NCBI GenBank assembly: GCA_041661385.1
Contig: JBAZUP010000001.1
Coordinates: 576,907-640,906 of the forward strand
Length of the DNA stretch: 64,000 bases
Source of the DNA: Patescibacteria group bacterium
Lineage (GTDB): Bacteria; Patescibacteriota; Patescibacteriia; Magasanikbacterales; GWA2-37-8
Direction of reading: 5' to 3'
The notes beneath the pieces were generated by a model that ran no database searches, was not told the DNA's origin, and saw nothing but the letters and a program-made list of their open reading frames with translations. Positions within the stretch are counted from its first letter, which is position 1; the number at the start of each line of letters is the position of its first letter. This document shows positions 4,629 through 37,514 of the stretch, piece after piece. A program made the position numbers and the translations under genes.

Positions 4629-4745
4629 TTCAGGTCTCCATCATTATATCCGCAAAATATTGTGAACATAATGATAGTGTGGAGACCTGACAGTACGGTC
4701 TCCACACTTTTTTAGCGTGTGAAGCTATACTGCTAGGCTACTGCC

Positions 4746-5519
4746 CTAGTGACAGCCGAAACAGGCTGACTTGAAGGCCGGGCTCACGTCGATCACGCCG
4801 TTGCCGTGCAGAGACGGAACGGTGCTGGTCAAAACGCCCGTGCAGTAGGTGTAAGGAGCGCAACTGGTGACGAGGCCACCCGAGGTATTCACGAAGCTCG
4901 GATAGCCGCCGGAGACGTAGGCGCCGGTCACGCCAGGGTGACAGAGCTGGCAAGCGTTTCCGTTCGGAGTGAACGGGAAAGCATGCCGGCCGCTGTGCCA
5001 CGCGGGGATGGTACCATCGGCGAGCCTCGCCGGGATGCTGTGACAGGCCGAGCAGGTTGCAGAGCCGGTCGCGTACCACGAAGGCGAAACACCGCCAGAA
5101 GGACCGCCGTAAGCGACGGTATTCTGCACGGGCTCGCCGTCACCACCCTGCATCCAGTAGGAGAAGGTCCCCGCAGGAATGCTGTGGCAGCCCACGTTGG
5201 AGCAGGTCTTGTCGACCGCGTTGAACGTCGGCCGAGGCAGGCTCGGGTTGTAGGCGGTGCTGGTCGAATCGAAGACGAGACGGCCGGCGACCTTGTGGCA
5301 GACGGAGCAGCTGTACCGATCGTGCTTCTGGTGCGCGCCAGTGGGCAGGCACCCCGGATCGCCGTCGAAACAGTCGGCGTGATCGGCCATGAGGGCCTGG
5401 GGGCCGGCGATCGTCGCCGGAGTCGCAGAAGACGCCTCTTCCGCCGGGGCAGTCGCATCGACACCGCAGGCAGACAGCAGGAGCAATGCCATGAGTCCAA
5501 GCGCAGAAAGGAACTTCAT
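4746..5519 (-). CDS. Putative multiheme c-type cytochrome lipoprotein in a compositionally foreign island (about 65% GC)
   Basis: Lipoprotein signal MKFLSALGLMALLLLSAC. Motifs CSVCH, CSACH, CQLCH and CFGCH plus CSNVGCH are present. GC content is far above the flanks. Confidence 0.5.
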   Translation of the reverse strand: MKFLSALGLMALLLLSACGVDATAPAEEASSATPATIAGPQALMADHADCFDGDPGCLPTGAHQKHDRYSCSVCHKVAGRLVFDSTSTAYNPSLPRPTFNAVDKTCSNVGCHSIPAGTFSYWMQGGDGEPVQNTVAYGGPSGGVSPSWYATGSATCSACHSIPARLADGTIPAWHSGRHAFPFTPNGNACQLCHPGVTGAYVSGGYPSFVNTSGGLVTSCAPYTYCTGVLTSTVPSLHGNGVIDVSPAFKSACFGCH

Positions 5520-5524
5520 TCGAA

Positions 5525-5750: not shown

Positions 5751-5822
5751 GCCCCTATATTTCAATGGATAGAATAACAGGCTTCGAACCTGTAGATGGG
5801 AGTTCGATCCTCTCTGGGGGCA
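5751..5822 (+). tRNA. tRNA-Arg (anticodon TCG)
   Basis: Acceptor GCCCCTA/TGGGGGC, anticodon stem ACAGG/CCTGT with loop CTTCGAA, T-arm GGGAG-TTCGATC-CTCTC. Confidence 0.75.
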
Positions 5823-5860
5823 CAAAATAAAACTGACCTTTGTGGTCTGTTTTATTTTAT

Positions 5861-6427: not shown

Positions 6428-7708
6428 TTAGTTGGTTTTTCTAACCTTTTTACCATTTTCGAGTACGCTAATCTTCCCATAAACTCCATCATACCCCGGA
6501 GTAACATTAACTAGGCCAGAACGCATATTTTTAATGCCTAAAGTAATGTTTTTATCACTTACAATTTTATCAATTTTAGCTAAATCTTCATAAAGTAAAA
6601 CCGAAAATTCGCTACCGAGCTTAAGCAACATATTTCGGTATTCGAGTTCAACTTTTTTACTGGCTTTGCCAACTTCAAACGCGTTGGCAATAATTTCACG
6701 AAGCGGAACAATATATCGATGTGAAATAAACTTGCCCAAAATTTTATTTTCTGACCGATCGGCAAGTTTTTCTATCCGATTTAGAACCCCGACGGTAAGT
6801 TTCTTTTTGCAAACCGGACAAATTTCTTTACAATGAATTGTTTCAGACGGTTTGAGTGATACGTTGCAGGTCTTATGACCATCATGATAATACATCCCCT
6901 CTTCGGGATAAAATTCTATTGTATAAAGAAATTGTTTTTTATCGCCGGATCTAATTTTTTTCCAAAGTGAGTCGTAAGAAACTTCATTTTCATTTTTAAA
7001 AGCGATAACATTTGCCTCTCGGCCTAAATTTTGTAAACTGTGCGCATCTGAATTTGATACTAGGGCAATTTTATCCAGCTTACTAATTCGGCGGTTCATG
7101 GTCGGATCACTAGATAATCCGGTTTCAATAGCAAAAATATTTGGCGTTAATTCTTCAAAACATTCCTCAAGAGAATCATACCCGGATTTTGATCCGAAAA
7201 CTGCATACCATGGCGTCCAAGCATGAGCGGGAATTACTACTATTCTTTTATCAATACCAAGACAAATTTCAACAATGTTTTTTGCGGTAAGTCCCATCAT
7301 CGGCCGCCCGTCAGAACGCAAATTTACCCCATGTTCTTCAAGCTTTTTGTTAAATCTTTCAGCAATTTCTAAGCTGGGCACAAAAATTAAAAGGTGTATT
7401 CGCCTTACCTTATCGCGGTGTTTATAAATACAAGATATTTCTGTGCCAATAATAAATTTAGTTCTACTTTCACTATTTTTTAAACTCAGTAATCCACCCC
7501 CATCTTCCTTTAGCTCTTTTTTTATCAATGAAAACCAACCCGGATGAGTAAAATCCCCGGTCGAAACAATATTGATTCCTTTTTCCTCACATACCTTCGC
7601 TATCTTTGGCAATTCTAAATCTTTAGAACAAGCCCGAGCAAACTTCGAATGTATATGAAGATCAATGATTTTTTCAATCATGCTATGTTTCTTTAACTGA
7701 CTTTGCAA
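6428..7708 (-). CDS. PHP-domain protein, endonuclease Q-like (TIGR00375-type)
   Basis: N-terminal DLHIHS PHP motif, internal CPVCKKK zinc-finger, C-terminal GYDGVYG. Confidence 0.45.
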   Translation of the reverse strand: MQSQLKKHSMIEKIIDLHIHSKFARACSKDLELPKIAKVCEEKGINIVSTGDFTHPGWFSLIKKELKEDGGGLLSLKNSESRTKFIIGTEISCIYKHRDKVRRIHLLIFVPSLEIAERFNKKLEEHGVNLRSDGRPMMGLTAKNIVEICLGIDKRIVVIPAHAWTPWYAVFGSKSGYDSLEECFEELTPNIFAIETGLSSDPTMNRRISKLDKIALVSNSDAHSLQNLGREANVIAFKNENEVSYDSLWKKIRSGDKKQFLYTIEFYPEEGMYYHDGHKTCNVSLKPSETIHCKEICPVCKKKLTVGVLNRIEKLADRSENKILGKFISHRYIVPLREIIANAFEVGKASKKVELEYRNMLLKLGSEFSVLLYEDLAKIDKIVSDKNITLGIKNMRSGLVNVTPGYDGVYGKISVLENGKKVRKTN

Positions 7709-8810
7709 TTACTTTACTTACTCCTTTTTCAAAAACATTTGGCAAAATATTTTCCGCACTGGGTTTTTTGACGAGACCAGCGAGGGCAATTGCGGCGGAA
7801 AGTTTCATTTTGGTAGTAACTTTTTTTATTCTACTATCTAATAAACCACGGAAGATACCCGGGAAGACTAAAACATTATTTATTTGATTTGGAAAATCGC
7901 TGCGCCCGGTTGCGACTACTGCCGCTCCGGCTTTTTTCGCTAGGTCCGGCATGATTTCCGGCGTCGGGTTTGCGAGAGCAAAAATTATTGCCTGTTCATT
8001 CATGGTTTTAATCATTTCAACTGTTAAAACAGCCGGCTTACTTACCCCCACAAACACGTCGGCTTTTACAACCGCCTCTTTCAACCCACCAATTAGATTT
8101 TCTTTATTGGTGACACTCGCTAAAAATACCTTTTCTTCCTCAAGGTCAGTGCGATCTTTTGAAATTATTCCTTTTGAATCTACCATGATTATATTTTTTA
8201 CGCCTCCGTCCAAAAATAATTTTGCGATGGCAGTACCGGCTGCCCCAGCGCCATTTATTGCAACTTTTATTTCATCAATATTTTTTCCAACTACCTTCAA
8301 AGCATTAATTAGCCCTGCGAGAACAACAATCGCGGTGCCGTGTTGGTCGTCGTGAAATACTGGAATATCAAGCATATCTCCAAGACGTTTTTCAATTTCA
8401 AAACAACGCGGCGCGGAAATATCTTCCAAATTAATACCCCCAAACATTGGTGAAATATTTACAATAGTTTTTATAATTTCTCCGGTATCCTGAGTTTTAA
8501 GTGCAATTGGAAAAGCATCGACTCCGGCAAACTCTTTGAGTAAGGCACATTTGCCTTCCATAACCGGTAAACTCGCTTCGGGACCAATATTACCAAGACC
8601 GAGTACGGCACTGCCGTCGGTAATCACTGCGACTAAATTATTCTTTCTGGTTAATTCATATACTTCATTCTTATTTTTTTCGATTACAAGACAAGCTTCG
8701 GCAACGCCCGGAGTATAAGCAAGACTTAAATCTTTTTTATTTTTAATTTTTGCTCTCGAAATTATTTCAATTTTGCCTTTTAATTTTCGGTGATAAGTTA
8801 TTGAGTCCAT
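7683..8810 (-). CDS. NAD(P)-dependent malic enzyme (short form)
   Basis: 375 aa with the malic-enzyme NAD-binding Rossmann region and N-terminal ACT-less core. Confidence 0.75.
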
Positions 8811-8824
8811 AATTGAAATATTTA

Positions 8825-9517
8825 TTATTTAATTATTTCCAACCATTGGTCAGGTATTTGTGACTCCAATTTAATACTTTCTTCACCGGTCGCAGTAACA
8901 AAAGCGAGTGAAGTGGCAGATAACGCCAAAGATTTATCCGGTAACGGTTCCGGCGCTCCATATTTAATATCTCCAACTATCGGATGGCCGATGGCCGAGA
9001 GCTGGGCGCGAATCTGGTGTGAACGGCCCGTGCCAAGCCATATTTTTAATAGTGAATATTTTGAATTACTTTTTACCACTTCATAAGTAAGTTCGGCATC
9101 TTTACTGTCTTTCGTTGGTGAATCGTAAATTTTGACTTTGTTTTTATTTTCGTCTTTTACAATATGATGAATAATAGTTTGCTTAGCCTTCTCCGGCTTC
9201 CCGCAAACTACCGCGTGATAGATTTTTTCCACCGTATGTTCACGAAACTGCTCAGAAAGACGCGCCGCACCTTTGCTGGTTTTACCAAAAATAATTATGC
9301 CGGAAACCGGACGGTCCAAACGATGAATGAGACCAAGAAAAACCTTTCCTGGCTTATGGTATTTATTTTTTAAATAATATCTTACCTGATCGAGCAATGA
9401 CGAATCGCCAGTTTTGTCTTCTTGAACCAAAATACCCGCCGGTTTATAAACGGCGATTAAGTGATTATCTTCGTAGAGTACTTTTAAATCCATGTTAAAC
9501 ACTGCTCCACCGTGCAA
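8825..9517 (-). CDS. RluA-family pseudouridine synthase
   Basis: Catalytic HRLDRPVSG motif. Confidence 0.8.
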   Translation of the reverse strand: MHGGAVFNMDLKVLYEDNHLIAVYKPAGILVQEDKTGDSSLLDQVRYYLKNKYHKPGKVFLGLIHRLDRPVSGIIIFGKTSKGAARLSEQFREHTVEKIYHAVVCGKPEKAKQTIIHHIVKDENKNKVKIYDSPTKDSKDAELTYEVVKSNSKYSLLKIWLGTGRSHQIRAQLSAIGHPIVGDIKYGAPEPLPDKSLALSATSLAFVTATGEESIKLESQIPDQWLEIIK

Positions 9518-10427
9518 AAATGCCGGCTGGCAGCAATCTTTCTCCCTCTTTTTCCTTAATAGTTAATTCCCCCACCTCTACCTTGCCGCCATATGCTTTG
9601 AACAAAGTTTCCAAATTATTTTTGTATGCCAAGGCTGAATAACCGGCCGCATAACCATTGATAAGAAAAAATAGCGGCTGTTTTGATAAGACCTTCTTAC
9701 ATTCTTCGACAAAAGGTAAAAAACTTTTTTCAATTTTCCAGAGCTCACCTTTTGGCCCATGCCCAAATGATGGCGGATCCATAATAATTCCATCGTACAA
9801 CTTCCCACGCTTCACTTCGCGCTGCACAAATCTAAAAGCATCATCTAATATCCAGCGAATCGGTTTATCTTTTAACCCGGAAATTTCCGCATTTTCTCTA
9901 CCCCAACCTATTGCCGCTTTTGAACCGTCGACATGACACACCTCGGCTCCGGCTTTGGCGCAGGCGAGAGTTGCCCCACCCGTATAGCCAAATAGATTCA
10001 AAACTGAAACCGGCCGTCCTGAATTTTTTATTTTTTCTTCCAGCCAAAGCCAATTACCGACTTGTTCCGGAAAAATTCCGGTATGTTTAAATGCCGAAAG
10101 CTTAACCCACATTTTCAATCCGCCAATTTCAACCTGCCACTTTTCCGCAATCTTGCCTTTAGTACTCCAATTGGCGCTTACACTGACACGCTTAAAAAAA
10201 GCATTAGCCTTTTCCCATTCCGCAACCGATAACTTTTTTGGCCACAAGGCCTGCGGGTCGGGCCTCGCAATCAAAACATCGGCATAGCGTTCCAGCTTTT
10301 CGCTTTCGCCGCTATCAACCAGTTCATAATCTTTTCCCGGCTCAGTAGTTATTATTTTATATTCACTCATATTATTTTCCGATATATTCAATATCGCTTT
10401 CATCTGCCCGGCGCAAACCTTCACCAC
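9495..10427 (-). CDS. Class I SAM-dependent rRNA methyltransferase (RlmI/RlmK-like)
   Basis: LNLFGYTGGATLA SAM-binding motif with a PUA-like N-terminus. Confidence 0.65.
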   Translation of the reverse strand: MVKVCAGQMKAILNISENNMSEYKIITTEPGKDYELVDSGESEKLERYADVLIARPDPQALWPKKLSVAEWEKANAFFKRVSVSANWSTKGKIAEKWQVEIGGLKMWVKLSAFKHTGIFPEQVGNWLWLEEKIKNSGRPVSVLNLFGYTGGATLACAKAGAEVCHVDGSKAAIGWGRENAEISGLKDKPIRWILDDAFRFVQREVKRGKLYDGIIMDPPSFGHGPKGELWKIEKSFLPFVEECKKVLSKQPLFFLINGYAAGYSALAYKNNLETLFKAYGGKVEVGELTIKEKEGERLLPAGIFARWSSV

Positions 10428-11100
10428 TATTCATTTCTTCAAACGCTTGGGCGACGAGACCTGGTGTACGGGCAATGATGAAAAAACCATCAATCAAATT
10501 TTGATCAAAACCCATATCAAGCAGTATTGCTGCATTTGCGCCGTCCATGTTCAAAGGCAGTTGTTTCGAAGAGGTTTTGTTTAATTCTTCCTTAATTTTT
10601 AAGGCAAATTTACAATATTTACCAAAAAATCCGTTTTCTTCGGCGATTTTTAAGAGCGCTTCGGCTCGGTTATCTACCTTTAATACTTTATGACCATACC
10701 CTGAAATATAAATCTTTCTTTTCTTAAAACTCGCAAGCAAGGTAGCTAAATCTTTTTCATCAATGTGCTCCACAAAAAATTTTGCGGCTGCGCCAAGCGC
10801 TCCTCCATGCCTTGAACCACCCAAAGCCAAAACACCGGCTGCAACCGAACTATAAAGCGAAGTATTCGTCGACGCAGTAATACGAGTAACTAGCGCCGAA
10901 GCTGAACCAGGCCCATGGTCAATCATCATGGCAACCATTGCGTTCATCATTTTTGTTTCCTTTGCGCTTGGTAATTCGCCTTTTAAGACCAACCAAATAA
11001 CTTCAGTAAAACTTTTCTCAAGCGCAAGTTTTTCCTGACTCTGTCCGCGAATTATCTCTTTACCATCATTGACGTTTGTTATCGCAGTTTTCCATTTCAT
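10372..11100 (-). CDS. Citrate synthase-like domain protein (citryl-CoA lyase / ATP-citrate lyase C-terminal domain-like)
   Basis: GGSRHGGALG resembles the citrate-synthase HGGA active-site motif. Only the small (C-terminal) CS domain is present. Confidence 0.55.
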   Translation of the reverse strand: MKWKTAITNVNDGKEIIRGQSQEKLALEKSFTEVIWLVLKGELPSAKETKMMNAMVAMMIDHGPGSASALVTRITASTNTSLYSSVAAGVLALGGSRHGGALGAAAKFFVEHIDEKDLATLLASFKKRKIYISGYGHKVLKVDNRAEALLKIAEENGFFGKYCKFALKIKEELNKTSSKQLPLNMDGANAAILLDMGFDQNLIDGFFIIARTPGLVAQAFEEMNSGEGLRRADESDIEYIGK

Positions 11101-11121
11101 ATTATTTATATTTAGTTCAAT

Positions 11122-12027
11122 TTATTTATTATAAGGCCTAACCAATTCTACCAAGTCTTCATACTTTTCCGCAATCATTACTCCAGCCGAACGCAGCGCC
11201 GCTTCCTTATCTTTGGCGCCCTGCCCACGCCCGACAATTGCTCCAGCATGACCAATATTCATTCCTTCCGGAAACAATGAGGCAAATTTACCGCCGATAT
11301 ATACAGCAAGCGGTTTAGTATATTCTTTATTTTCGATTAATTTTACAATTTCAAATTCATAACTTCCGCCGTGCTCTCCAAAAATTACAACCGCTTTTGT
11401 CTGTTCATCTTTCTCAAATAACCGAAGTAAATCGGCATAAATTGTACCGACTAATAAATCACCACCCACATGTACTGCCGCACTCTGACCCATGCCCGCT
11501 TGGCGAATTTGCCAGGATAGCTCGTTGGTCATACCACCTGAGCGAGAAATAACTCCAATACTGCCTGGCTTAAATATCTCTTCTACTAATGGACCTCCTA
11601 CCACTCCGATTCTGCCTACCCCTGGAACAATCAAACCAAGCGAACTCGGACCGACAACTTGAATATTTTTTTCTTTAGCGGCGGCAAGAAAATACGCGGT
11701 ATCTTTAATCGGAACGCGTTCAGCCATCACATTAATTAATTTAATATCATTTTTTATTGCTTCCAGCACCGCATCCTTCACCGCGAAAGGCGGAACATAT
11801 ACCGCCGATGTATTTAGTTCCGGAAATTTTTCTTTTGCTTCATCAATCGAATTAAAAATTGGTTTTCCCTCTACTTCTTGCCCGCCTTTTTTTGGTGTGA
11901 CACCACAAACAACTTCCGTATGATAATCAAGCATTGCTTTGGCAGCCTTGGCACCTTCCTTGCCAGTCATGCCTTGTACTATTACCTTAGTTTTTTTTGA
12001 AATTAAAATTGACATATTATTTACCAA
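11122..12027 (-). CDS. Succinyl-CoA synthetase alpha-like subunit (CoA-binding, phosphohistidine GHAGA)
   Basis: SucD-like Rossmann/CoA-ligase motifs; the active-site His is in NIGHAGAIV. Confidence 0.75.
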   Translation of the reverse strand: MVNNMSILISKKTKVIVQGMTGKEGAKAAKAMLDYHTEVVCGVTPKKGGQEVEGKPIFNSIDEAKEKFPELNTSAVYVPPFAVKDAVLEAIKNDIKLINVMAERVPIKDTAYFLAAAKEKNIQVVGPSSLGLIVPGVGRIGVVGGPLVEEIFKPGSIGVISRSGGMTNELSWQIRQAGMGQSAAVHVGGDLLVGTIYADLLRLFEKDEQTKAVVIFGEHGGSYEFEIVKLIENKEYTKPLAVYIGGKFASLFPEGMNIGHAGAIVGRGQGAKDKEAALRSAGVMIAEKYEDLVELVRPYNK

Positions 12028-13162
12028 TCATTTCCGCAAGTACTACCGCGGTCGCGCTCATTGGCGTGTCTTTATCAAAATATTTTAATTTTAAATTATT
12101 ACGCGCAGCACAATCTTCCATGATTTTTTTTCCTTCAGAATCAAATGGCCCGGCGCGGCGCACAACAATCGGATATTTCGGTTTCAGCTCATCGAGCGCA
12201 TCCACAATACCTTGAAATGTTTCTGCGATATTTGTAAAATTTGCAACACCGCCCGCAATCCACAAGCCCCTTAAGCCGGGTTTTGATAAAACAATTTTTA
12301 CCAGATTGTAAACTTTTTCCCGCGGTGGATTACCGGAATATTCCGTATAATTGGCAGGTTTACAACCGGCCTGAATCAAAGCATCCATGTTTGAAATACT
12401 GGCTCCGCCTCCTGAAAAAAGAATTGCCACATCTCCATCCATTTCAATATATTTTCCTGCCGTACCACGGTAATAATTGGCGCCTTCATCAATTTTTGTA
12501 ACCGCTATTTCTCGCTCGGTCGGCAATCGCCCCATCATTGTACGTGGCTCAAACTTTTGCCAGGCATCATGCCTAAAAAAAGCATCTTCATCAAGCGCAA
12601 CCTTGGCATCGGCTGCCACATATTTTCCTTCAGAAGTTAAAATAAGCGGATTAATTTCCATTAATCTTGCATCTTCCGATAAAAAACATTTCCAAAGCGG
12701 CTCTGCGAAAATAAAATTTTCAGTAACTTGCTCAGACCTAATATCTAATGGTATTTTTTTTATTTTTTCCGGCGTAACATCTTCTATATCAATTCCACCG
12801 ACAGCGCTAAATATCATTACCGGCTGTTTGATGTTTGTATCGTAAGTAATAGAAATATATTGTTCGGAAACAATTTGCAGTCGCTCTTCAATTAAAACCG
12901 CGGCTACATACTGACCCAAAATATTGATTCCAAACATTTCTTCAGTTATTTTTTTTGCTTCTTCTTTAGAAGAAGCAAACTTTATACCATTATTTTTTCC
13001 CCGTTTTCCAGATAAAATTTGCGCCTTTACTGCCACTTCTTTAACCCCCAATGATTCATAGGCTGCTTCAGCATTTTCACCACGCCGAACCACCACCCCT
13101 TTCGGGATAGTAATGCCATATTTTTCAAATATTTTTTTTCCTTCCCACTCGTAAAGATTCAT
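12017..13162 (-). CDS. Succinyl-CoA synthetase beta-like subunit (ATP-grasp)
   Basis: SucC-like ATP-grasp N-terminal half plus CoA-ligase C-terminal half; overlaps the alpha-like gene by 11 nt. Confidence 0.75.
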   Translation of the reverse strand: MNLYEWEGKKIFEKYGITIPKGVVVRRGENAEAAYESLGVKEVAVKAQILSGKRGKNNGIKFASSKEEAKKITEEMFGINILGQYVAAVLIEERLQIVSEQYISITYDTNIKQPVMIFSAVGGIDIEDVTPEKIKKIPLDIRSEQVTENFIFAEPLWKCFLSEDARLMEINPLILTSEGKYVAADAKVALDEDAFFRHDAWQKFEPRTMMGRLPTEREIAVTKIDEGANYYRGTAGKYIEMDGDVAILFSGGGASISNMDALIQAGCKPANYTEYSGNPPREKVYNLVKIVLSKPGLRGLWIAGGVANFTNIAETFQGIVDALDELKPKYPIVVRRAGPFDSEGKKIMEDCAARNNLKLKYFDKDTPMSATAVVLAEMIGK

Positions 13163-13177: not shown

Positions 13178-13576
13178 CTATTTAAAATCCATCCGAAACC
13201 CGAGGCCCACATCTTTAAAACCAAGATTTCGATACCAATCGTGAAGTTCTTTTTTTTCACAACGGCAAGAAAAAACTAATTTATAACAATTTTGCTTTAT
13301 CGCTTCGGCTTTCACATTTTCTACCAGATTTTTTCCAAACCCCTGACCGCGGAATTTTTCATCTACAAATAAATCTTCCATATAACCGAACGGCTCGTCG
13401 TGAAGGTAGTTATACATAATATATAAAAAGACTCGCCCTATTTCTTGTCCGTCTTTTTCCGCGGTAAACTTTACCGCATAACTTCTCTTTTCAATTTCTT
13501 TTTTTATTATCATATTACAAATCTTAACAAAACCCAGACGCCAATTATACCCGTTACAACCACCGCTACCCGCCAC
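13178..13576 (-). CDS. GNAT family N-acetyltransferase
   Basis: RGQGFGKNL acetyl-CoA binding motif. Confidence 0.7.
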   Translation of the reverse strand: MAGSGGCNGYNWRLGFVKICNMIIKKEIEKRSYAVKFTAEKDGQEIGRVFLYIMYNYLHDEPFGYMEDLFVDEKFRGQGFGKNLVENVKAEAIKQNCYKLVFSCRCEKKELHDWYRNLGFKDVGLGFRMDFK

Positions 13577-13908: not shown

Positions 13909-14514
13909 TTATTTCTTTTGCAAAAAATATTCTAAAAAATACTTTTCCTTAACTACCACTTCGTAAAAACTTTTTAATTCAAAATGCTCTGAAAATAACT
14001 GCGCAAATTCATTCCTCTCCCAAAAAGCAAAAAATCTTTTTTCATCAACCCCGCCATCCGAAATATATCGTTGTCCGCGACCCTCTAAAGTACAGACATA
14101 CAAAATACCTTTTTCAGAAAGCAATTGATAAAGTTTTTCTATCACCTTTGGTAAGTCGGTTTTTTTAATATGGAGTAGCGAAGTAACCGCCCAAATTCCA
14201 TCAAACGAATTTGGGGGAAATTTTAAATCCTCAATGTCCATGACTTCGGCTTCAATTTGCTTACTCTTGGCAAGCGCTACCATGCGCTCCGAAAAATCAA
14301 TTGCTTTTACCTTATATCCAAGCTTTTTAAAATGCGCGGCGTGTTCCCCCGGTCCGCAACCTAAGTCCAAAACTCTTTTACCCGATAACAGATCGCTAAA
14401 ATGTTTTACTTCTTCTTTTTGCTCAGAAAATAATGCCCGGTGTTTTATTGCATAACGCTCGGCATTACGATTATAAAATTCTTTGGTAATCTTTTTATAA
14501 TCATCCATATTCAA
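13909..14514 (-). CDS. Class I SAM-dependent methyltransferase
   Basis: VLDLGCGPG motif I. Confidence 0.7.
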   Translation of the reverse strand: MNMDDYKKITKEFYNRNAERYAIKHRALFSEQKEEVKHFSDLLSGKRVLDLGCGPGEHAAHFKKLGYKVKAIDFSERMVALAKSKQIEAEVMDIEDLKFPPNSFDGIWAVTSLLHIKKTDLPKVIEKLYQLLSEKGILYVCTLEGRGQRYISDGGVDEKRFFAFWERNEFAQLFSEHFELKSFYEVVVKEKYFLEYFLQKK

Positions 14515-15500
14515 CTACAAATGATTTCGTACAATACTTTGCCGAGCTTTTGGCTGTCATGCCGAATCAGACTGCGTTTTAAACTATCCCCCTGATCTTT
14601 TTTCACTTCTCTCTGACTGACCAAATTTTTTCTTACTACTTTGTATTTATGTTCAACTAAATTATCTTCAATCGGATATTCTTTTTCCTTGGCGTAGTGC
14701 TGCAAAACTTTTTTTGAAAGATCACCGCGATGAACAACAACAAAATTTGGCGTCCGGCCCGAATAACGGTGCATTTCTGCTACTAAATCCGATGCCTTCA
14801 TGCCGTTCGTTTGACCGTATTTTGTCATTAAATTACTTACGAATATAAACTTAGCTTTACTGCTTGCGATTGCATCTGCAATGCCCGGTACGATAAGGCT
14901 GGCAAGTGTCGTAGTATACAAATCGCCTGGCCCAGCGATAATAAAATCTGCTTTTTTAATGGCATTTACCGCTTCTTTGTTTGCGGCTACTTTTTTTGAT
15001 AAAGTTAAGCGCTTAATTTTGCCATAATTTGTAGATAGCGATGGCTCGTCAATGAGATGCTCACCGCGAATTTTTTTTCCGCTTTCATACTCGGCAACTA
15101 AATGGGTATTTTCTAAAGTAACCGGAATTACCTTGCCCCTTACTCGAAACAATTTTTTTGCCGCTTCAATGGCCAAGAGCTCTGTTCCGGTAATATCCGA
15201 AAGAGCCATCATGATAAAATTTCCCAGCGTATGACCGGTAATACCCTTTCCCTTTCCAAACCGATACATAAATAATTTTCGCAAAATTCCATTTCCATTT
15301 TCAGAAAGAGCGATAATTGATTTTCTGAGATCGCTTAACGGAAGAAGGCCAAACTCATCGCGAATTACAGCGTTGCTGCCGCCATCATCAGTCATGCTGA
15401 CAATAATACTAATTTCAATTTCAGCGTAATCTTTTAGTTTATTTAAAACCACCGTGGTTCCAGTGCCACCACCGATAATTACAACTCTTTTCTTTTGCAT
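14511..15500 (-). CDS. YvcK/CofD-family (UPF0052, gluconeogenesis factor-like) protein
   Basis: N-terminal VVIIGGGTG motif typical of the YvcK/CofD family. Confidence 0.7.
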   Translation of the reverse strand: MQKKRVVIIGGGTGTTVVLNKLKDYAEIEISIIVSMTDDGGSNAVIRDEFGLLPLSDLRKSIIALSENGNGILRKLFMYRFGKGKGITGHTLGNFIMMALSDITGTELLAIEAAKKLFRVRGKVIPVTLENTHLVAEYESGKKIRGEHLIDEPSLSTNYGKIKRLTLSKKVAANKEAVNAIKKADFIIAGPGDLYTTTLASLIVPGIADAIASSKAKFIFVSNLMTKYGQTNGMKASDLVAEMHRYSGRTPNFVVVHRGDLSKKVLQHYAKEKEYPIEDNLVEHKYKVVRKNLVSQREVKKDQGDSLKRSLIRHDSQKLGKVLYEIICS

Positions 15501-15510: not shown

Positions 15511-16251
15511 TTATTTTTTTCTTTTATCCGCCTCTTCTAGTTCTTCGGGCGTGTTCACTCCAAACCATTCATCGGAATTTTCCAATTCTACAACCTGATG
15601 TTTGACGCCGGTGTCTCTTGCGACCGCGAGCGCCGTCGGTAAGCCATATTCGCCAAGCTTTCTCATTTTTGGCATGGTCGGAAAAATTTTCTCGAACCAG
15701 GCACGATCAAAAATAAAAGTGCCAGTGCTGATTTCTTTAATTTTTTTCTGCTCCTCGGTTAAATATTCCTTTTCAATTATTTCAACCCTGCCATCTTCGT
15801 GCCGTACGATTCTACCTAAATTTTCATAATTCTTCGGCTTGGTTGTAAGCAATGTTAATTTAGCACCGCTACTAAAATGTTTTTCAAAAAGCTTTATTAT
15901 TGTTTCTGGCTCATAAAACGCGCTATCATCTCCCCCCATGACCATGACATTTTTTATTTCCGGCCGCATTTTTTTCATACCGGTAAAAGCGGCATGAGCG
16001 GTTCCCTTTAATTCAACTTGTTCTGCATAACTAACATTACTCCCAAAATAATCCATGATTTTTTCCTTACAAAAACCCACCACCAGACAAATTTGTGAGG
16101 GTTCAAAACCGGCTTTTTTTAGAGTTTTGATACTATATTCAATTATTGGTTTACCGCCAATTTCTCTCATTACTTTCGGTATTTCTACCGATTTTAGCCT
16201 AGTACCTTTGCCAGCCGCAAGAAGTACTACCCCGCATGTTGAATCAATCAT
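15511..16251 (-). CDS. Sugar-phosphate nucleotidyltransferase (NTP_transferase family)
   Basis: LAAGKGTRL pyrophosphorylase signature. Confidence 0.7.
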   Translation of the reverse strand: MIDSTCGVVLLAAGKGTRLKSVEIPKVMREIGGKPIIEYSIKTLKKAGFEPSQICLVVGFCKEKIMDYFGSNVSYAEQVELKGTAHAAFTGMKKMRPEIKNVMVMGGDDSAFYEPETIIKLFEKHFSSGAKLTLLTTKPKNYENLGRIVRHEDGRVEIIEKEYLTEEQKKIKEISTGTFIFDRAWFEKIFPTMPKMRKLGEYGLPTALAVARDTGVKHQVVELENSDEWFGVNTPEELEEADKRKK

Positions 16252-16326: not shown

Positions 16327-17364
16327 CTACTTTTCAAGTTTTGAGCTATATTTACCTTGTTGGGCAAGACTTGTAAGGTGAGCCCTTTTTTCAAATACCT
16401 TTTGTGCTCCCTTTGCCCTGCTCGCTATTCCCCGCCAATGTGCCAAAGTCGAATTTTGCAGCGCCCGACCAAATGAATAGGTAACTACCCAAGGCAATTT
16501 TTCGTGCAACGCTATCGCATTCATGTTTGCACAAGCTTCTTTTTCTGTTTGACCACCGGATAAAAATACGATTCCCGGCACAATTTTTGGCACTACTTCT
16601 TTTAGGCACGCAACTGTAAGATTTGCGACTTTTTCTACCTTAATTTTTTCCCTACTTTCGCTGCCCGGCACAATCATGTTGGGTTTTAAAAATATAAAAC
16701 GAAGATCAACACCGCGCTTAACTAATTCATCAAAAATACCCCTTAAAGTCCTTACGGTTGATTCATAGCATTCATCTGAATTATGATTTCCAGTTCCCAA
16801 AACTTCCGGCTCAACAATCGGAACAATACCGGCTTCCTGGGCAATTTTCGCATAAGTCGCGAGCAGTTCACCATTTTTTTGAATGCAACGATTGCTTGGC
16901 AAATTTTTCCCAACACTAAATACCGCGCGCCATTTTACAAAAGTCACGCCCAGATCCGCATAATCCTGCATTCTTTCCGCAAGGCCTTCGAGACCTTTGG
17001 TCTGCATTTCGCCGTGTTTGTTTCGCGGCATCGGAGCAAGCCCTTTATCGATTTTACAGCCAATCAAAACCCCTTGTTCTTTTAAAACTTTTCGAAGTAA
17101 CCGACCATCACTGGTGGTTTCGCGCAGTTGTTCATCAAATAAAATGACACCGCTAATGTAATTGGAAAATTTTGGTGAAGTAAAAAGCATTTCACGATAT
17201 GCTTCACGCATTTCTTCAACATTTCGAATATGGTACCGCTCAAAACGTTTTGCAATCGTTTCAATACTTTCATCGGCGGCTAAAATTCCCTTTCCGGCAA
17301 CGAGAATTTGTTTTACGATTTTATTGAGTTTTAGTTTGTCCATAGTTTGTATATTATACAACAT
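16327..17364 (-). CDS. Class I fructose-bisphosphate aldolase
   Basis: GILAADES signature with a Schiff-base lysine region. Confidence 0.8.
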   Translation of the reverse strand: MLYNIQTMDKLKLNKIVKQILVAGKGILAADESIETIAKRFERYHIRNVEEMREAYREMLFTSPKFSNYISGVILFDEQLRETTSDGRLLRKVLKEQGVLIGCKIDKGLAPMPRNKHGEMQTKGLEGLAERMQDYADLGVTFVKWRAVFSVGKNLPSNRCIQKNGELLATYAKIAQEAGIVPIVEPEVLGTGNHNSDECYESTVRTLRGIFDELVKRGVDLRFIFLKPNMIVPGSESREKIKVEKVANLTVACLKEVVPKIVPGIVFLSGGQTEKEACANMNAIALHEKLPWVVTYSFGRALQNSTLAHWRGIASRAKGAQKVFEKRAHLTSLAQQGKYSSKLEK

Positions 17365-17470: not shown

Positions 17471-20400
17471 TTAAGGTGCCATTGGCGTTCCGGCATCATA
17501 ACGAGCTTTCGCAGGTAGCGTCATGACACGAGTACCGGCTGTTGCGCCAGAAGAATCAATCCAAGGCCAGGTATTTGCGCCGAAGAAACTTGGTGTTGAA
17601 GTAAGGAAATACGATACGCCAACGTTGTGATTTGGGAAGCCTGCGTTCCAATCAAAAATACTTGTATTTACACTGTCCCAATTACCATGTCTCCATAGCT
17701 TATCTACCGCCTTTGTTGAAAAGGTAGCTTGGCGCGCATCCCATGTCGAACCGCCATAATTCATATAGTTTTGAGGTGGATATGGAACACCACCGACAAC
17801 CCGATTCTGCGTTCCGGCCGCAATATTTGCATCATAATCGTCTCCCGAACCCCACACCATCTGACCAATACTCCACACTGAATATCGACCACCTTGCGCT
17901 GGCCCGGTGGCTTCATATACTGCGCCAGCCGGAGGATTAAGTACATTACCAACGAATGCCATTTCCCTTTCCCAACCATCCGTGTTGGCAGCGCGAAGAT
18001 TATTACCGTTTGCGTAATTTGTAGATTTTCCAGGTGAATAATTGCGAAGAAAAGCCATGTACCCGGAATTACCATGTGTAGTATCACCACCAATATTGGC
18101 CGACCAATTTCCCTCAACCAAAAGCATATGTGAAAAAGATTGATGTGAGCCATTTATTGCTCCGTCCATCCAATCACCACCATTTGCCGAAGTATTGTCT
18201 ACGTAGTTATAGGCAAAAACATTTCCCGGACCACAGGCATTAGTCTGCATCGGTTTGTTCATAAATATTGCAATACTGTCGATAACCAAACTATCACTGG
18301 TCGCGGCATTCAAGTTAATACCATAATTTGCACCACCAGAAACCGGACCACCCGTTGTATGATGCGCATACAGCCGTCGAATTTCCGACCGGAATTGATG
18401 TTCCATACGAACATGATCGTCGGTAATACCACCATTTGCTGAACCGTCAGTTTCAACATTTTTAATCCAATCAAAAGCACCAGCATGATAAACGATTGCG
18501 CCGCTTTGCGGACCAGCAAGAGAAAAATCTTCAAGTCCAAAATACCAAATTCCATCTGTGTCACGGCGTGAAACTCGCCACACTTGTGGATACAGCCTAG
18601 TCGTTCCATCGGCCTGACTATAATATGTATAAGCCATTCTGGTCGGTGGATCAAAGGTTAAAGTTGTTCCATTCACCGCGGTAATCTGATGAACCGATGC
18701 GACAGAACGGAATCCATTCGTTGATATCGGACCATGATAAGGTCCATCCGTAAACGGGGCTCGTTTATTATAACCGGCATCAAGTATCGAAACGTAAGAT
18801 AAATCATCGAGTTGATCAAGCTGAATAAGATCGCCGACCGCAAAACCGGTAGCACTCGCCACGGTCACCGACGTCGAACCGACCGCGAGACTTCCTCCTG
18901 CGGCAAGCGTCATTGTAGTTATAGGTACTGTACTCCAATCAGTATCAACGGATGCAATTCCGCCGCCAGCTGTAAAATTAAGTCTGGTGCGACCAGCCCC
19001 AACTGGTCCAGCACCTCTCAAAATTACATAATTTTGTGGAGTTATGCCCCCGATACTGCCGAAAGTTCCAGCCGGCATCAAGACAACTCTAATATTCGTT
19101 GAACTGCCTCGAGCTGAAGCAGCCGCAATTGCTGAATTTATTCCATTAGTCGTCATTTGCCCTGAAGTAAGTGTCGTATCGAGTGTGCCAGTTGGTATTC
19201 CACCCGGAATACCCGGCATCCATTTGAGACCATTAGTAAGAGTCGGCATTGCTGTAATCCACGCCGGCACATCACCGAGCGCATCGCTTGGATTTATCAC
19301 CGCAACACTCGCTGTTCCAGTAACTCCCGAAGCAACAGCATTTATAATATCACTACCTGAACCAACTGCCGCCGGCGCAGTATATAAACCGCTGGTCGCA
19401 TTAATAGTTCCGCCCGCGCCGCCAGCAGTAACACTCCATGCAAAAGTGGTCGTACCGGGCATGCCAATACTAAATTGGTCAGTAGAAGTGGCGGTGAATT
19501 GAGTTGTGCTGTTAATATTTACGCTCACCGATGAAGGTGAAACGGTAACTAATGAAAGTCTTTGGGTGACAGTCGAAGTGACTGTTGAAGTAGCAGATAA
19601 AGAACCGCTGTCAGTCGCAATAATTTGGAATTGATAAACTCCTGACCGATTAAAGGTCGCAACGGTGGTTGAAGCAGCTGTTGAGGTGTTTGCACTAAAA
19701 GTCGGATTGCTTGCGCCGGCCGGTTTTGAAAGAGTGCTCCATGTGAAAGTAAGATTTGCTAGGCCGGCATCGTCAGCAGCAACAACATGAAGAGTTGCGG
19801 TGGTACCGGTCACTGTGGCCGGAGTTGAAGTGACCGAGGAAATAGTTGGAGCGCTGTTTGGCGCAGTAACTGTGACGGTAACTGATGAAGTAACACTAGT
19901 ACCAGCAGCGTTGGTAGCGGTTAAAGTATATGCGGTGGTGGAAATTGGGCTTACCGTGGTAGTTGTAGAACCAGTAACTGTGCCCACACTTTGATTAATA
20001 GAAAGGGCGGTTGCACCGGTCGTTGACCAAGATAAAATCGCCGAGTTGCCACTTGTGATTGATGAAGGCGTCGCTATAAAACTACTAATACTTGGCGCCG
20101 CAACGACAGTTACAGCCGTTGAAGTAGTAACACTTGATCCGGCGGCGTTGGTAGCGGTTAAAATATATGTTCTGGTAGTCGTTGGACTAGTTGAAGTTGT
20201 AGTTTGACCAGTAACTGAACCCACTCCTTGATTAATAGAAAGGCTGGTTGCCCCAGATGTTGTCCAAGAGAGCACAGTCGAATTGCCATTTGTTATTGTA
20301 GAAGAAGAAACCGTAAAACTACTAATACTTGGCGCCGCAACGACAGTAACTGCAACTGAAGAAGTAACGGAACCGGAACCGTTCGTAGCTGTAAGCGTAT

Positions 20401-22024
20401 AAGTTCTTGTTGAAGTTGGAATAGTTGAGGTTGTAATTTGACCAGTAACATCACCAATACTTTGATTAATTGATAATGATGTGGCACCAGTGGTGGTCCA
20501 AGATAAAATAGTTGGACTACTAGAAGTAATAGTTGAGCTTGAAACAGTAAAACTTTGAATAGTTGGTAAAGCCGTAAGAGTAACTGACGCGGTACCAGTA
20601 ACACTTCCCGCAACAGCATTTACCGTATCATTTCCCGGACCAACAGCCGCGGGTGCTAAATATAATCCGGAAGTCGCATTAATAGTTCCACCCGCTCCAC
20701 CAGCGCTAACACTCCAAGCAAAAGTGGTTGTACCCGGCATTGCAAAACCAAACTGATCGGTTGAGGTAACAGTAAACTGCTCATTGGCATTTAGCGAAAC
20801 AGCTGTAGTCGAAGGAGAAACAACAACTGAAGCAACCTGCTGATTTACAGTAAGTGCGACACTTGAAGTGACAGAGAGCGAACCGGCATCGGTGATAGTT
20901 ATTAAAAATTGATAATTTCCAGTCGAACTAAAAGTAGCAACTGTTGTTTTAGAAGCATTTGAATTATTTTGACTAAAAACCGGATTGGTCGAAGAAGCCG
21001 GCTTACTAAGTACGCTCCAGGCATAAGTCAGCGCGCCTTCTCCAGCATCATCCGCGCCAAGAACAGAAAGAGTCGAAGTTGTTCTGGTAACAATTGCCGA
21101 TGAAGAAGTTGCCGAAGTCGCAATTGTTGGAGCTTGGTTGGCTGGTGCTGGAGTGCTTCCGCCACCACCCCCGCCGCCGCCTCCTCCACCACCGCCACCA
21201 CCGCCAAGAATTGGGGTTGGAGTCGGAACGGTTGAAGTTGTGGTAGCAACTGGAACAACCGGAACAAAATCCGAAGTAACTGTAATGCTTAAAGTAGCCT
21301 TAAGCATTTTATTATTAAAAGAATGTACGGTCGCTTTAGCATGAAACGTACCGGTCGCGCTAGGCGCGGTATAAACATCTCCCACCAAACTGCCGGCATT
21401 ATCTTCCACTAAAGACCAAATCGCCGGAACGTCTGCGGCGCCATTAATATTCAACTTTAAAGTAGTAGTACGATTAGGATTAATAAAAATCGGATCGGCG
21501 GTTATCCAAGTCGCGGCGGCCGGAACCGCGTCGATCACATCATATGGCACTTTTTTAAATAACGCCGCAGTAACTTTTTTTACTCCTTTGAAATCGGGAT
21601 AATAGGTATGATAAGTTTCAGAATCAATAAAATGCTGCTTAGTACACTGGCCGGTTACATAATACACTGCCCGGTCTTTTATGCTATTTAATTTAAAAGT
21701 TGTATAAGCTGTAATCGGACAATTCGGCGGCATGACAATGTTTACATCATAGGGAATACTGTCGAGCTTCGCCGCCGCGGTTTTTTTAACGGTGGAAAAA
21801 GATTTAAAATATGAATAGTAAACCTTGGAAGAAGTAAAAAACCGCTTCGTACAGGAGGCGGTTACATAATATACGGCCGGGTCACCGGCTTTTTTATAGG
21901 CAAAATTTTTGGTAAGTGGGCAGGTGGCCGCGCTCGCAGAAAAAGAAAAGAAATATAGAAAAAAAGTACCTAAAAACAGGCTAAATACGACCCCCCATTT
22001 CAGTCGTTTGTTATTCTTTTGCAT
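17471..22024 (-). CDS. Giant secreted surface protein (1517 aa) with Ig-like tandem repeats, a 17-Gly linker and a beta-helix-like C-terminal region
   Basis: N-terminal signal peptide, then repeated 80-90-aa modules ('ATSLSINQ..VTGQ..TYTLTATN', three copies) and 'TFAWSV.AGGAGGTINATSGLY' (two copies). The C-terminus has Gly/Asn-rich beta-helix-like repeats. Confidence 0.6.
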   Translation of the reverse strand: MQKNNKRLKWGVVFSLFLGTFFLYFFSFSASAATCPLTKNFAYKKAGDPAVYYVTASCTKRFFTSSKVYYSYFKSFSTVKKTAAAKLDSIPYDVNIVMPPNCPITAYTTFKLNSIKDRAVYYVTGQCTKQHFIDSETYHTYYPDFKGVKKVTAALFKKVPYDVIDAVPAAATWITADPIFINPNRTTTLKLNINGAADVPAIWSLVEDNAGSLVGDVYTAPSATGTFHAKATVHSFNNKMLKATLSITVTSDFVPVVPVATTTSTVPTPTPILGGGGGGGGGGGGGGGGSTPAPANQAPTIATSATSSSAIVTRTTSTLSVLGADDAGEGALTYAWSVLSKPASSTNPVFSQNNSNASKTTVATFSSTGNYQFLITITDAGSLSVTSSVALTVNQQVASVVVSPSTTAVSLNANEQFTVTSTDQFGFAMPGTTTFAWSVSAGGAGGTINATSGLYLAPAAVGPGNDTVNAVAGSVTGTASVTLTALPTIQSFTVSSSTITSSSPTILSWTTTGATSLSINQSIGDVTGQITTSTIPTSTRTYTLTATNGSGSVTSSVAVTVVAAPSISSFTVSSSTITNGNSTVLSWTTSGATSLSINQGVGSVTGQTTTSTSPTTTRTYILTATNAAGSSVTTSTAVTVVAAPSISSFIATPSSITSGNSAILSWSTTGATALSINQSVGTVTGSTTTTVSPISTTAYTLTATNAAGTSVTSSVTVTVTAPNSAPTISSVTSTPATVTGTTATLHVVAADDAGLANLTFTWSTLSKPAGASNPTFSANTSTAASTTVATFNRSGVYQFQIIATDSGSLSATSTVTSTVTQRLSLVTVSPSSVSVNINSTTQFTATSTDQFSIGMPGTTTFAWSVTAGGAGGTINATSGLYTAPAAVGSGSDIINAVASGVTGTASVAVINPSDALGDVPAWITAMPTLTNGLKWMPGIPGGIPTGTLDTTLTSGQMTTNGINSAIAAASARGSSTNIRVVLMPAGTFGSIGGITPQNYVILRGAGPVGAGRTRLNFTAGGGIASVDTDWSTVPITTMTLAAGGSLAVGSTSVTVASATGFAVGDLIQLDQLDDLSYVSILDAGYNKRAPFTDGPYHGPISTNGFRSVASVHQITAVNGTTLTFDPPTRMAYTYYSQADGTTRLYPQVWRVSRRDTDGIWYFGLEDFSLAGPQSGAIVYHAGAFDWIKNVETDGSANGGITDDHVRMEHQFRSEIRRLYAHHTTGGPVSGGANYGINLNAATSDSLVIDSIAIFMNKPMQTNACGPGNVFAYNYVDNTSANGGDWMDGAINGSHQSFSHMLLVEGNWSANIGGDTTHGNSGYMAFLRNYSPGKSTNYANGNNLRAANTDGWEREMAFVGNVLNPPAGAVYEATGPAQGGRYSVWSIGQMVWGSGDDYDANIAAGTQNRVVGGVPYPPQNYMNYGGSTWDARQATFSTKAVDKLWRHGNWDSVNTSIFDWNAGFPNHNVGVSYFLTSTPSFFGANTWPWIDSSGATAGTRVMTLPAKARYDAGTPMAP

Positions 22025-22089: not shown

Positions 22090-22213
<124 letters not shown>

Positions 22214-22299: not shown

Positions 22300-25825
<3,526 letters not shown>

Positions 25826-35048: not shown

Positions 35049-35504
35049 CTATTTATTAAGTGCCCTGTTCACAACATCATCAAGTGTTTGTCCGCCGCTG
35101 CCGGCATTGGTACCTAAATTTCTGCCGAGCGCCAAATTGGTTATCAAAATAGTTATTCCGTAAGCACTAATAATAATTAACAGACCAATAGTAGAATTTG
35201 CAATAGTTTTTTTTGATGAAGCAATTTGCTCGTCATTTCCCTGCGCCGTCATCCATTTGAAACCCGCAAACGCAATTAGCACAAATAAAACGGTACCGAC
35301 CAGAGATAAAAGCAATCTAATCATTTGTGAGGCGATTAGTCTTGGGTCTTTTGGTTCACTAAATCCAGCTCCAGTAGTTCCACCGGCGTGTCCAAGCTGA
35401 TTAAAAGATTCTGTGAGCCATCCTTGAGCGCTGGCTTTTGGTACCAATAGGAACAATGCTAACCATAGAACGGTTGTTATTAGAATTGTTTTCTTAAAAT
35501 TCAT
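35049..35504 (-). CDS. TrbC/VirB2-like pilin paralog 1 (FKWMTAQGNDEQI)
   Basis: Signal peptide, hydrophilic spacer, TM1, WMTAQGN-E loop, TM2, and a Gly/Asn-rich tail. Confidence 0.55.
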   Translation of the reverse strand: MNFKKTILITTVLWLALFLLVPKASAQGWLTESFNQLGHAGGTTGAGFSEPKDPRLIASQMIRLLLSLVGTVLFVLIAFAGFKWMTAQGNDEQIASSKKTIANSTIGLLIIISAYGITILITNLALGRNLGTNAGSGGQTLDDVVNRALNK

Positions 35505-35510
35505 ATGATT

Positions 35511-35903
35511 TTAAAATGATGTCGCTTGAGCAGTGTAAATCATGACAAAAGCAGTGATGCTATAAGCTGCGACGACTACAACCATACCAATTGTAGCGGT
35601 AGTAATAATATTTTTGGCTTTAGCTACTTGTTCTTCATTGCCCTGCGCAGTCATCCAAAGAAAACCAGAATAAACCATTAGAGCAAAGAAGATTGTACCA
35701 ACAAATGTTAAAACTATTTTAATTATCCGTCCGATTGTTTCAGAAAGGGTATATTGAGTTGTGTTTATACTAAAACCAGCATATCTCGCAATATTTTGCG
35801 CCGTTCCATTGTATCCTACCCCGATGTCTGGCGCGGCGAAAACCGGCACAATAAAAAATAATGAAATCATTAATGACAGAAAAAGGAAAAATTTATTTTT
35901 CAT
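35511..35903 (-). CDS. TrbC/VirB2-like pilin paralog 2 (FLWMTAQGNEEQV)
   Basis: Same architecture as paralog 1; 130 aa. Confidence 0.55.
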   Translation of the reverse strand: MKNKFFLFLSLMISLFFIVPVFAAPDIGVGYNGTAQNIARYAGFSINTTQYTLSETIGRIIKIVLTFVGTIFFALMVYSGFLWMTAQGNEEQVAKAKNIITTATIGMVVVVAAYSITAFVMIYTAQATSF

Positions 35904-35915
35904 ATTACATTAATT

Positions 35916-36416: not shown

Positions 36417-36423
36417 ATAAAAA

Positions 36424-36975: not shown

Positions 36976-37033
36976 ATATATTTTATCGAAATCGCGTCGT
37001 GAATCATTGATTGCTGCATTTTCAAACCCGCTT

Positions 37034-37435: not shown

Positions 37436-37514
37436 AGCAGTTGTGTTTTCTATCTGCTAAAAGACACAATCCACTACCCAATCCGCGCAATTGCGCGGAT
37501 TGGGAGTTGATCTA

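Follow-up and report, generated by a model that had tools for sequence, protein, structure and literature searches.

In a 64,000-nt stretch of DNA from a Patescibacteria group bacterium of the Magasanikbacterales (assembly GCA_041661385.1, contig JBAZUP010000001.1, positions 576,907 to 640,906; hereafter the window), three neighboring minus-strand genes encode proteins that we assign to the two subunits of citryl-CoA synthetase (CCS), CcsA and CcsB, and to citryl-CoA lyase (CCL), Ccl, a set predicted to split citrate, yielding acetyl-CoA and oxaloacetate (Table 1). An earlier reading of the same window (the original prediction) had proposed four open reading frames (ORFs) on this strand, for a beta subunit, an alpha subunit, a 242-aa protein and a malic enzyme, and the strand and coordinates of all four were confirmed, as were the GHAGA phosphohistidine motif in the alpha subunit and the HGGA motif in the 242-aa citrate-synthase-domain protein. 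The E-values of the domain matches lie well outside what chance would produce. The genes had also been described as overlapping or adjacent. They are adjacent, with spacers of 1 nt between ccsA and ccsB and 21 nt between ccsB and ccl by ORF coordinates, but the proposed overlap of ccsA with ccsB depends on starting the latter at TTG 12027 (a 301-aa ORF). The most likely start is ATG 12015 (297 aa), since the exact 297-aa protein is recorded at NCBI and JGI and the N-terminus of E. coli SucD matches it; ccsA and ccsB therefore abut without overlapping.

Identity of CcsA, CcsB, and Ccl

CcsA consists of an ATP-grasp_2 domain (PF08442, 1.2e-43) and a domain of the “ATP citrate lyase citrate-binding” family (PF16114, 1.6e-27, 96.6 bits vs. 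26.8 at the cut-off), and the Pfam scan returned no match to PF00549 in this protein. Its scores lie below the NCBIfam cut-offs for succinyl-CoA synthetase (SCS) (TIGR01016, 250.2 vs. 375.55; NF001913, 249.1 vs. 370). The nearest solved relative is CcsA of Hydrogenobacter (6hxq_B, 5.8e-66), with weaker PDB matches to Thermus SucC (1.4e-50) and Chlorobium AclB (2.5e-43). CcsA residues G277, N308, T310, and R336 align with G309, N346, T348, and R379 of human ACLY, which we take to be its citrate-contacting positions, and they stand within the motifs YSG277NPP, A307-N308-F-T310 (GGVANFTN), and R335-R336-AGP (VVRRAGP). At the same sites, SucC of E. coli and Thermus and all SCS-type representatives have GGG, GGI(T/V)RCD, and VRLxGTN, none of which is found in CcsA. 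In a neighbor-joining tree with 200 bootstraps, for which 3/4 of the reference sequences were partial, CcsA grouped with Hydrogenobacter CcsA and Chlorobium AclB in a clade of CCS and ATP-citrate lyase (ACL) sequences, apart from SCS, in 195 replicates. The exact protein is labeled “citryl-CoA synthetase large subunit” at JGI. Relatives at 65–72% identity come mostly from Candidatus Magasanikbacteria, and an exhaustive search of 1.84 billion cluster representatives showed the relatives to form a continuum; named members of the clade include Sungbacteria of the candidate phyla radiation (CPR) and, within DPANN, Woesearchaeota, Diapherotrites, and Aenigmarchaeota.

CcsB contains the domains CoA_binding (PF02629) and Ligase_CoA (PF00549)/Succ_CoA_lig (PF13607) and shares 43% identity with E. 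coli SucD. In the numbering of the 301-aa ORF, GHAGA occupies residues 259–263, His260 aligns with the SucD phosphohistidine His246, and Glu218 aligns with Glu208. Like CcsA, it scores below the SCS cut-offs of NCBIfam, here those for the alpha subunit (NF004230, 285.8 vs. 336; TIGR01019, 276.9 vs. 353.2).

Ccl matches PF00285 (1.5e-42) and corresponds to the C-terminal portion of a citrate-synthase fold; it exceeds the cut-off of the NCBIfam “citryl-CoA lyase” model NF004869 (237.1 vs. 212). Its nearest solved relative is Hydrogenobacter CCL (6hxp_A, 2.2e-52), followed by citrate synthase at 5.8e-22, and the exact protein is labeled “citryl-CoA lyase” at NCBI. Residues H62, H98, H137, R145, D186, and R211 align with H229, H264, H305, R314, D362, and R387 of E. 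coli GltA, so that the catalytic His/His/Asp triad of citrate synthase is kept as H98, H137, and D186 and the two arginines are kept as well. The HGGA motif (residues 98–101) begins with His, the residue found in CCL and in citrate synthase, where ACL has Phe. In a scan of genome contigs, the back-translated Ccl patterns were too specific and picked up nothing but distant genes resembling citrate synthase, from Burkholderiales and Clostridia.

Overall, these sequence features lead us to conclude with high confidence that the three genes encode CCS and CCL, that is, a split ACL, and not the succinyl-CoA synthetase that belongs to the tricarboxylic acid (TCA) cycle. The same distinction had been drawn in the original prediction, and the family scores, PDB relatives, conserved residues, and bootstraps bear it out; the identity that it suggested for the 242-aa protein also holds at the level of catalytic residues. 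On the placement of the subunits among SucCD, AclAB, and CcsAB, which it had suggested as a check, the beta subunit groups with ACL and CCS without being the specific sister of CcsA from Aquificae. This last point, together with the lack of resolution of branches inside the ACL/CCS clade, weighs against a simple assignment to CCS, as does the slightly closer match of CcsB to archaeal SCS-alpha (2yv2, 4.7e-74, 252 bits) than to its Hydrogenobacter counterpart (6hxq_A, 1.1e-63, 218 bits).

Two other identities need to be considered in this context. An ordinary SucCD accompanied by an unrelated citrate-synthase fragment would be in line with the best-scoring NCBIfam models of both subunits, which are SCS models, with the top PDB matches of the alpha subunit, which are SCS-alpha, and with its JGI name, “succinyl-CoA synthetase alpha subunit.” However, both subunits fall well under the SCS cut-offs, the beta subunit combines a citrate-binding domain and motifs with the absence of SCS motifs and a position apart from SCS in the tree, Ccl co-occurs in nearly all related loci (see below), and no other TCA gene lies nearby. 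We consider this identity extremely improbable and rejected it on the sub-cut-off SCS scores, the citrate-binding motifs, the tree, and the co-occurrence of Ccl. It is also conceivable, though quite improbable, that the CCS/CCL-like pair acts on the CoA ester of a different hydroxy acid (2-methylcitrate-like, malate-like, or other), given that the clade is known from sequence alone and is not sister to the characterized CcsA of Aquificae, and that the alpha subunit is of a generic, SCS-like type. Against a different acid, all four citrate-contacting positions of ACLY are kept in CcsA, the oxaloacetate/citrate-binding His and Arg of citrate synthase are kept in Ccl, and CcsA scores far above the cut-off of PF16114, as given above.

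Compared with characterized systems, the window proteins most resemble those of Hydrogenobacter thermophilus (PDB 6HXQ, 6HXP), which likewise comprise three unfused chains of the same domain composition and which share the His of HGGA in CCL and the phosphohistidine loop in the alpha subunit. The window proteins are shorter (381, 297, and 242 aa vs. 429, 353, and 268 residues for the chains of the solved structures), and CcsA has ANFT, as in ACL, where Hydrogenobacter CcsA has ANNT. The two also differ in setting, which is the reductive TCA cycle in Hydrogenobacter and amino-sugar synthesis in a non-autotrophic, ultra-small host in the window. The window set would share its overall chemistry with Chlorobium AclB/AclA, in which the citrate-binding residues (ANFT, RRxGP) are identical, but in AclAB the alpha part is fused to the lyase domain, whereas these are separate genes here (297 and 242 aa). 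In eukaryotic ACLY, the homologous domains form a single fused polypeptide. SucC/SucD shares the fold and the phosphohistidine mechanism and differs in the C-terminal domain of the beta subunit, which in the window is of the citrate-binding type, and in clade.

Gene neighborhood in close and distant relatives

The genes around ccsA-ccsB-ccl are listed in Table 1. The mini-GNAT gene ends 15 nt upstream of ccsA, and the distance from the end of ccl to the start of the malic enzyme gene, which lies farther downstream, is 1.56 kb; the genes in between, for the rRNA methyltransferase and RluA, are probably passengers. In a promoter/terminator scan of the window, terminator-like hairpins were plausible at three sites (17453-17428, 16314-16293, and 6271-6252). 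Such hairpins bound the gene string running from 16251 to 6428, within which none of similar quality was found; the hairpin at 16314-16293 follows the class-I aldolase gene (16327-17364). Promoter-like sites were no commoner than background. This weak evidence suggests that the string 16251-6428 may be co-transcribed, with tentative operon limits.

Table 1. Features of the citrate-cleavage locus, in window coordinates.
Feature	Position	Strand	Remarks
ccsA, citryl-CoA synthetase large (beta, SucC/AclB-like) subunit	12017..13162	-	381 aa
ccsB, citryl-CoA synthetase small (alpha, SucD-like) subunit	11122..12015	-	297 aa from ATG 12015
ccl, citryl-CoA lyase, short citrate-synthase-fold protein	10372..11100	-	242 aa
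Mini-GNAT acetyltransferase, candidate acetyl-CoA consumer	13178..13510	-	111 aa from internal ATG; Pfam Acetyltransf_1/7/10
YvcK/GlmR-type UDP-GlcNAc-binding protein (CofD-related)	14511..15500	-	TIGR01826
GlmU-like uridyltransferase, N-terminal half	15511..16251	-	246 aa, without LbH acetyltransferase domain
Class-I fructose-bisphosphate aldolase, head of gene string	16327..17364	-	PF00274, 3.3e-113
Short NAD(P)-malic enzyme, possible oxaloacetate/malate sink	7683..8810	-	375 aa; malic and Malic_M domains
RlmI/RlmK-like rRNA methyltransferase	9495-10370	-	Pfam Methyltrans_SAM; NCBIfam rRNA methyltransferase families
RluA-type pseudouridine synthase	8825-9517	-	Pfam PseudoU_synth_2
TIGR00375-family (PHP-like) protein	6428-7708	-	overlaps malic enzyme gene end

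We annotated 80 metagenome loci, whose CcsA is 57–73% identical to that of the window, by phmmer with the window proteins and the proteins of one relative as queries; the denominators below are the loci with enough sequence. CcsB follows CcsA in 44/44 loci, and Ccl, always as a gene separate from that of the alpha subunit where it is found, in 38/39. Upstream of ccsA and on the same strand, GlmS is present in 31/31 loci, the N-terminal GlmU half in 28/29, YvcK/GlmR in 34/37, and the mini-GNAT in 35/41. A TIGR00375-family gene directly follows ccl in 15/39 loci. By contrast, a malic enzyme lies downstream in 1/35 loci, its adjacency being a feature of the window and of the two loci closest to it (L008 and L017). 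The malic enzyme of the window itself matches NF009501 with its N-terminal part (3.3e-109). The distance of about 1.6 kb in the original prediction is thus accurate, but the link is not conserved, and we downgraded the malic enzyme as a functional partner on this count.

The unit glmS - yvcK - GNAT - ccsA - ccsB - ccl persists amid rearrangement of other genes. The rRNA methyltransferase and RluA genes occur on either side of ccsA-ccsB-ccl in the relatives, and the HAD genes of the cluster also move or are swapped. The aldolase slot holds a PF00274 class-I fructose-bisphosphate aldolase in some loci and a DhnA/PF01791-type class-I enzyme (NF006707, 584 bits) in others, including L008 (774-1847), L015, and L040. 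This is a case of non-orthologous displacement at a fixed position, in which the function is kept and the gene replaced. In one further locus (L009), a fructose-bisphosphatase gene stands just upstream.

The upstream genes are largely those of amino-sugar synthesis. GlmS is bona fide (818 bits), and the YvcK of the window scores 274.7 against the TIGR01826 cut-off of 196. The GlmU-like protein of the window matches positions 3–234 alone of the 447-aa GlmU models (157 bits). Because it lacks the acetyltransferase half, acetylation of glucosamine phosphate must require another, acetyl-CoA-dependent, protein. The mini-GNAT is a candidate for this role. The exact 111-aa protein is already on record, its AlphaFold model has a GNAT fold with a predicted local distance difference test (pLDDT) score of 95.8, and the glucosamine-6-phosphate N-acetyltransferases 3t90, 1i12, and 3fb3 are among its top Foldseek and phmmer matches. 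Its residues E46, D47, and Y94, which are conserved in the family, align with the “IED” and “FY” positions of yeast GNA1, whose Glu-Asp and Tyr we presume to be catalytic from the yeast GNA1 literature. The protein is short for a GNA1, with 111 aa as opposed to ~150–160 aa.

Two more distant loci (L097 and L099), with CcsA 47–49% identical to that of the window, belong to an apparently high-GC bacterium and place the three genes in a run with overlapping stops and starts (L097 7561-13809; L099 7561-13804). The order there is a GFO/IDH/MocA oxidoreductase, an LbH sugar N-acetyltransferase (NeuD/PglB/VioB-like), a GT4 glycosyltransferase, CcsA, CcsB, Ccl (NF004869, 225 vs. cut-off 212), and a DegT-family sugar aminotransferase, with glycosyltransferases, Wzy, MurB, and a Mur ligase in the surroundings. 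Judging from its sequences, this gene set is that expected for acetamido-sugar synthesis and is a second, independent architecture. At the Sungbacteria locus L014 and at L098, the three genes follow or sit within genes for sugar-nucleotide epimerase, glycosyltransferase, and CMP-sugar functions. In a Woesearchaeota-like locus (L096, 10001-12879), a HAD of the beta-phosphoglucomutase type lies between ccsA and ccsB, and no ccl was found near this ccsA-HAD-ccsB arrangement; the same HAD family (HAD_b) recurs in the Magasanikbacteria cluster.

Probable direction and possible role of the proposed citrate cleavage

We infer the substrate, the direction, the import of citrate, and the acetyl sink from sequence, and the scheme proposed here should be read accordingly as a model. 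Family assignment and conserved residues point to a two-step citrate chemistry, in which CcsA/CcsB would use a phosphohistidine to convert citrate, ATP, and CoA to citryl-CoA, ADP, and Pi, and Ccl would then split citryl-CoA into acetyl-CoA and oxaloacetate. The most likely direction is cleavage, acting on citrate from the host or the surroundings, because citrate would be a dead end without aconitase and isocitrate dehydrogenase (IDH), neither of which was found in the window scan, and because the neighboring genes consume acetyl-CoA. The acetyl-CoA would serve biosynthesis, and its main sink may be the N-acetylation of amino sugars destined for the cell envelope, among them UDP-N-acetylglucosamine (UDP-GlcNAc) and further acetamido sugars. 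Malic enzymes decarboxylate oxaloacetate, and the oxaloacetate could be passed on in this or another way, for example by the nearby malic enzyme.

Running the reaction in reverse, to make citrate from acetyl-CoA and oxaloacetate and save the thioester energy as ATP, has a precedent in the ACL of Desulfobacter, which works in the citrate-forming direction. The overall reaction is near equilibrium, and a fermenter would gain one ATP per acetyl-CoA. Nevertheless, we regard reverse operation as very improbable, as the window contains no aconitase, IDH, or other citrate-consuming gene that we could find, leaving citrate as a dead-end product, and as the neighbors consume acetyl-CoA instead of producing it. 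Least probable of all is a part in the reductive TCA cycle and CO2 fixation. Hydrogenobacter and Leptospirillum use CCS/CCL in this way, the only role that experiments have established for the pair, but the host here is a Patescibacterium with a 0.78-Mb contig, the gene context is that of cell-envelope sugar synthesis, and no other TCA gene, including those of aconitase, IDH, 2-oxoglutarate:ferredoxin oxidoreductase, and fumarate reductase, was seen among the scanned window ORFs of at least 150 aa. This role was rejected because the partner enzymes were not found in the window.

Organisms that ferment citrate rely on the citrate lyase CitDEF, which needs no ATP; cleavage at the cost of ATP is found where the cell is after acetyl-CoA itself. 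Such a cost is reasonable only when the reaction is run for its thioester, and for this reason we lean, by a little, toward an anabolic citrate cleavage that supplies acetyl-CoA. The original prediction had instead favored a citrate shunt through malate and pyruvate. Its citrate-cleaving set is upheld, its malic-enzyme branch is weakly supported, and the amino-sugar context points to an anabolic supply of acetyl-CoA. In a catabolic version of the shunt, scavenged citrate would yield acetyl-CoA (then acetate and ATP) and oxaloacetate (then malate or pyruvate via malic enzyme), with no special link to sugar acetylation. The malic enzyme gene of the window is consistent with such a scheme, as it lies on the same strand without a strong terminator in between and has the same arrangement in the two closest relatives, and a comparable scheme has been published for a Gracilibacterium (PMC6851277). 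However, linkage holds in 1/35 related loci for the malic enzyme as against ~85–100% for the amino-sugar genes, ATP-dependent cleavage followed by acetate kinase is established to give zero net ATP from the acetyl moiety, and no acetate-forming genes were seen among the scanned window ORFs. The catabolic shunt therefore appears unlikely.

The anabolic supply of acetyl-CoA can be linked to amino sugars on two grounds. One is the half-length GlmU together with an acetyl-CoA-dependent transferase as an immediate neighbor in two unrelated operon designs (GNAT in one, LbH in the other), and the other is the presence of an amino-installing enzyme in each design, namely GlmS and the DegT aminotransferase. 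We propose a role in amino-sugar N-acetylation from this gene neighborhood as a possibility that falls somewhat short of an even chance. Several observations weigh against it. The 80 loci are one lineage, and part of their synteny may be inherited rather than selected. The GNA1 structures rank 6th–10th in the Foldseek search of the mini-GNAT, at scores that many other GNATs also reach, and the modeled protein might instead acetylate proteins or have an unrelated enzymatic function. One distant locus (L100) has a housekeeping context without sugar genes, and the DPANN loci L096 and L101 also lack a sugar context, the ccs genes of L101 lying near a 2-oxoacid:ferredoxin oxidoreductase. Moreover, no citrate transporter was identified in the 64-kb window, and pyruvate:ferredoxin oxidoreductase, acetyl-CoA synthetase, Pta-AckA, or aconitase/IDH may be encoded elsewhere in the 0.78-Mb genome, as the scan covered the window.

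ACL-based citrate scavenging was proposed in 2019 for a Gracilibacterium of the CPR on the basis of a putative ACL (PMC6851277), which sets a precedent in another CPR lineage, and CCS/CCL homologs in CPR and DPANN were noted in a 2022 preprint. In the literature, we found no paper that ties citryl-CoA enzymes to Magasanikbacteria, or to GlmU/amino-sugar genes in Patescibacteria. The enzyme type is already known and is auto-annotated in this genome. What is added here, as a hypothesis of moderate interest drawn from gene order, is the conserved coupling of CCS/CCL genes to genes of amino-sugar N-acetylation.

Other features of the window and possible biological implications

Bacterial 23S and 5S rRNA genes and six tRNAs are present in the window, and the rRNA scan found no 16S rRNA gene within it. 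The 23S rRNA match (22309-25821, minus strand) spans 3513 nt as opposed to 2925 nt in the model, corresponding to ~590 nt of insertions, and is followed by the 5S rRNA at 22098-22204; insertions of this kind are frequent in the rRNA genes of CPR. Two large predicted surface proteins of 1517 and 1449 aa, with PKD, Big_2, PA14, and DUF4215 repeats, are encoded at 17471-22024 and 42318-46667 (both minus strand). A solute-binding protein and, at 39948-42299, a second sugar-nucleotidyltransferase are encoded near four consecutive small T4SS_pilin-family proteins (35049-39943, minus strand), and type-IV-pilin-like N_methyl proteins are encoded at 46686-49108.

At 4746-5519 (minus strand), a 257-aa lipoprotein-like ORF contains four CxxCH and one CxxxxCH motif and resembles a multiheme cytochrome. 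Its GC content is 64.7%, compared with a window average of 41.5%, and it lies in an island (~4700-5520) next to a tRNA-Arg (5751-5823). Its homologs are of the “CxxxxCH...CXXCH cytochrome family” from Anaeromyxobacter, Geomonas, and Deltaproteobacteria, and the exact protein is on record only on a 217-kb ENA contig. It could be a single-gene horizontal transfer or an assembly artifact, and it sits uneasily with the claim, made in the original prediction, of a genome without respiration genes.

Patescibacteria, which are considered to have next to no central metabolism, still require a supply of acetyl-CoA for peptidoglycan precursors. In several of their lineages, CCS/CCL might be a dedicated generator of acetyl-CoA for amino-sugar N-acetylation that runs on imported citrate, without a TCA cycle and perhaps without a route from pyruvate to acetyl-CoA. 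Glucosamine phosphate would be acetylated by the mini-GNAT in place of the missing acetyltransferase half of GlmU or, in the diacetamido-sugar operons, an LbH N-acetyltransferase would serve; we advance this broader proposal only tentatively. Cytosolic ACLY of eukaryotes, which supplies acetyl-CoA for biosynthesis and acetylation outside the TCA cycle, offers an analogy from gene context only. If the proposal is true, these genes would do in a bacterium what ACLY does for the hexosamine pathway and would be an example of CCS/CCL outside carbon fixation. The building of the cell wall would then hinge on citrate from the host; citrate would be a metabolite for which these symbionts may rely on their hosts, and this could help direct attempts to cultivate them.

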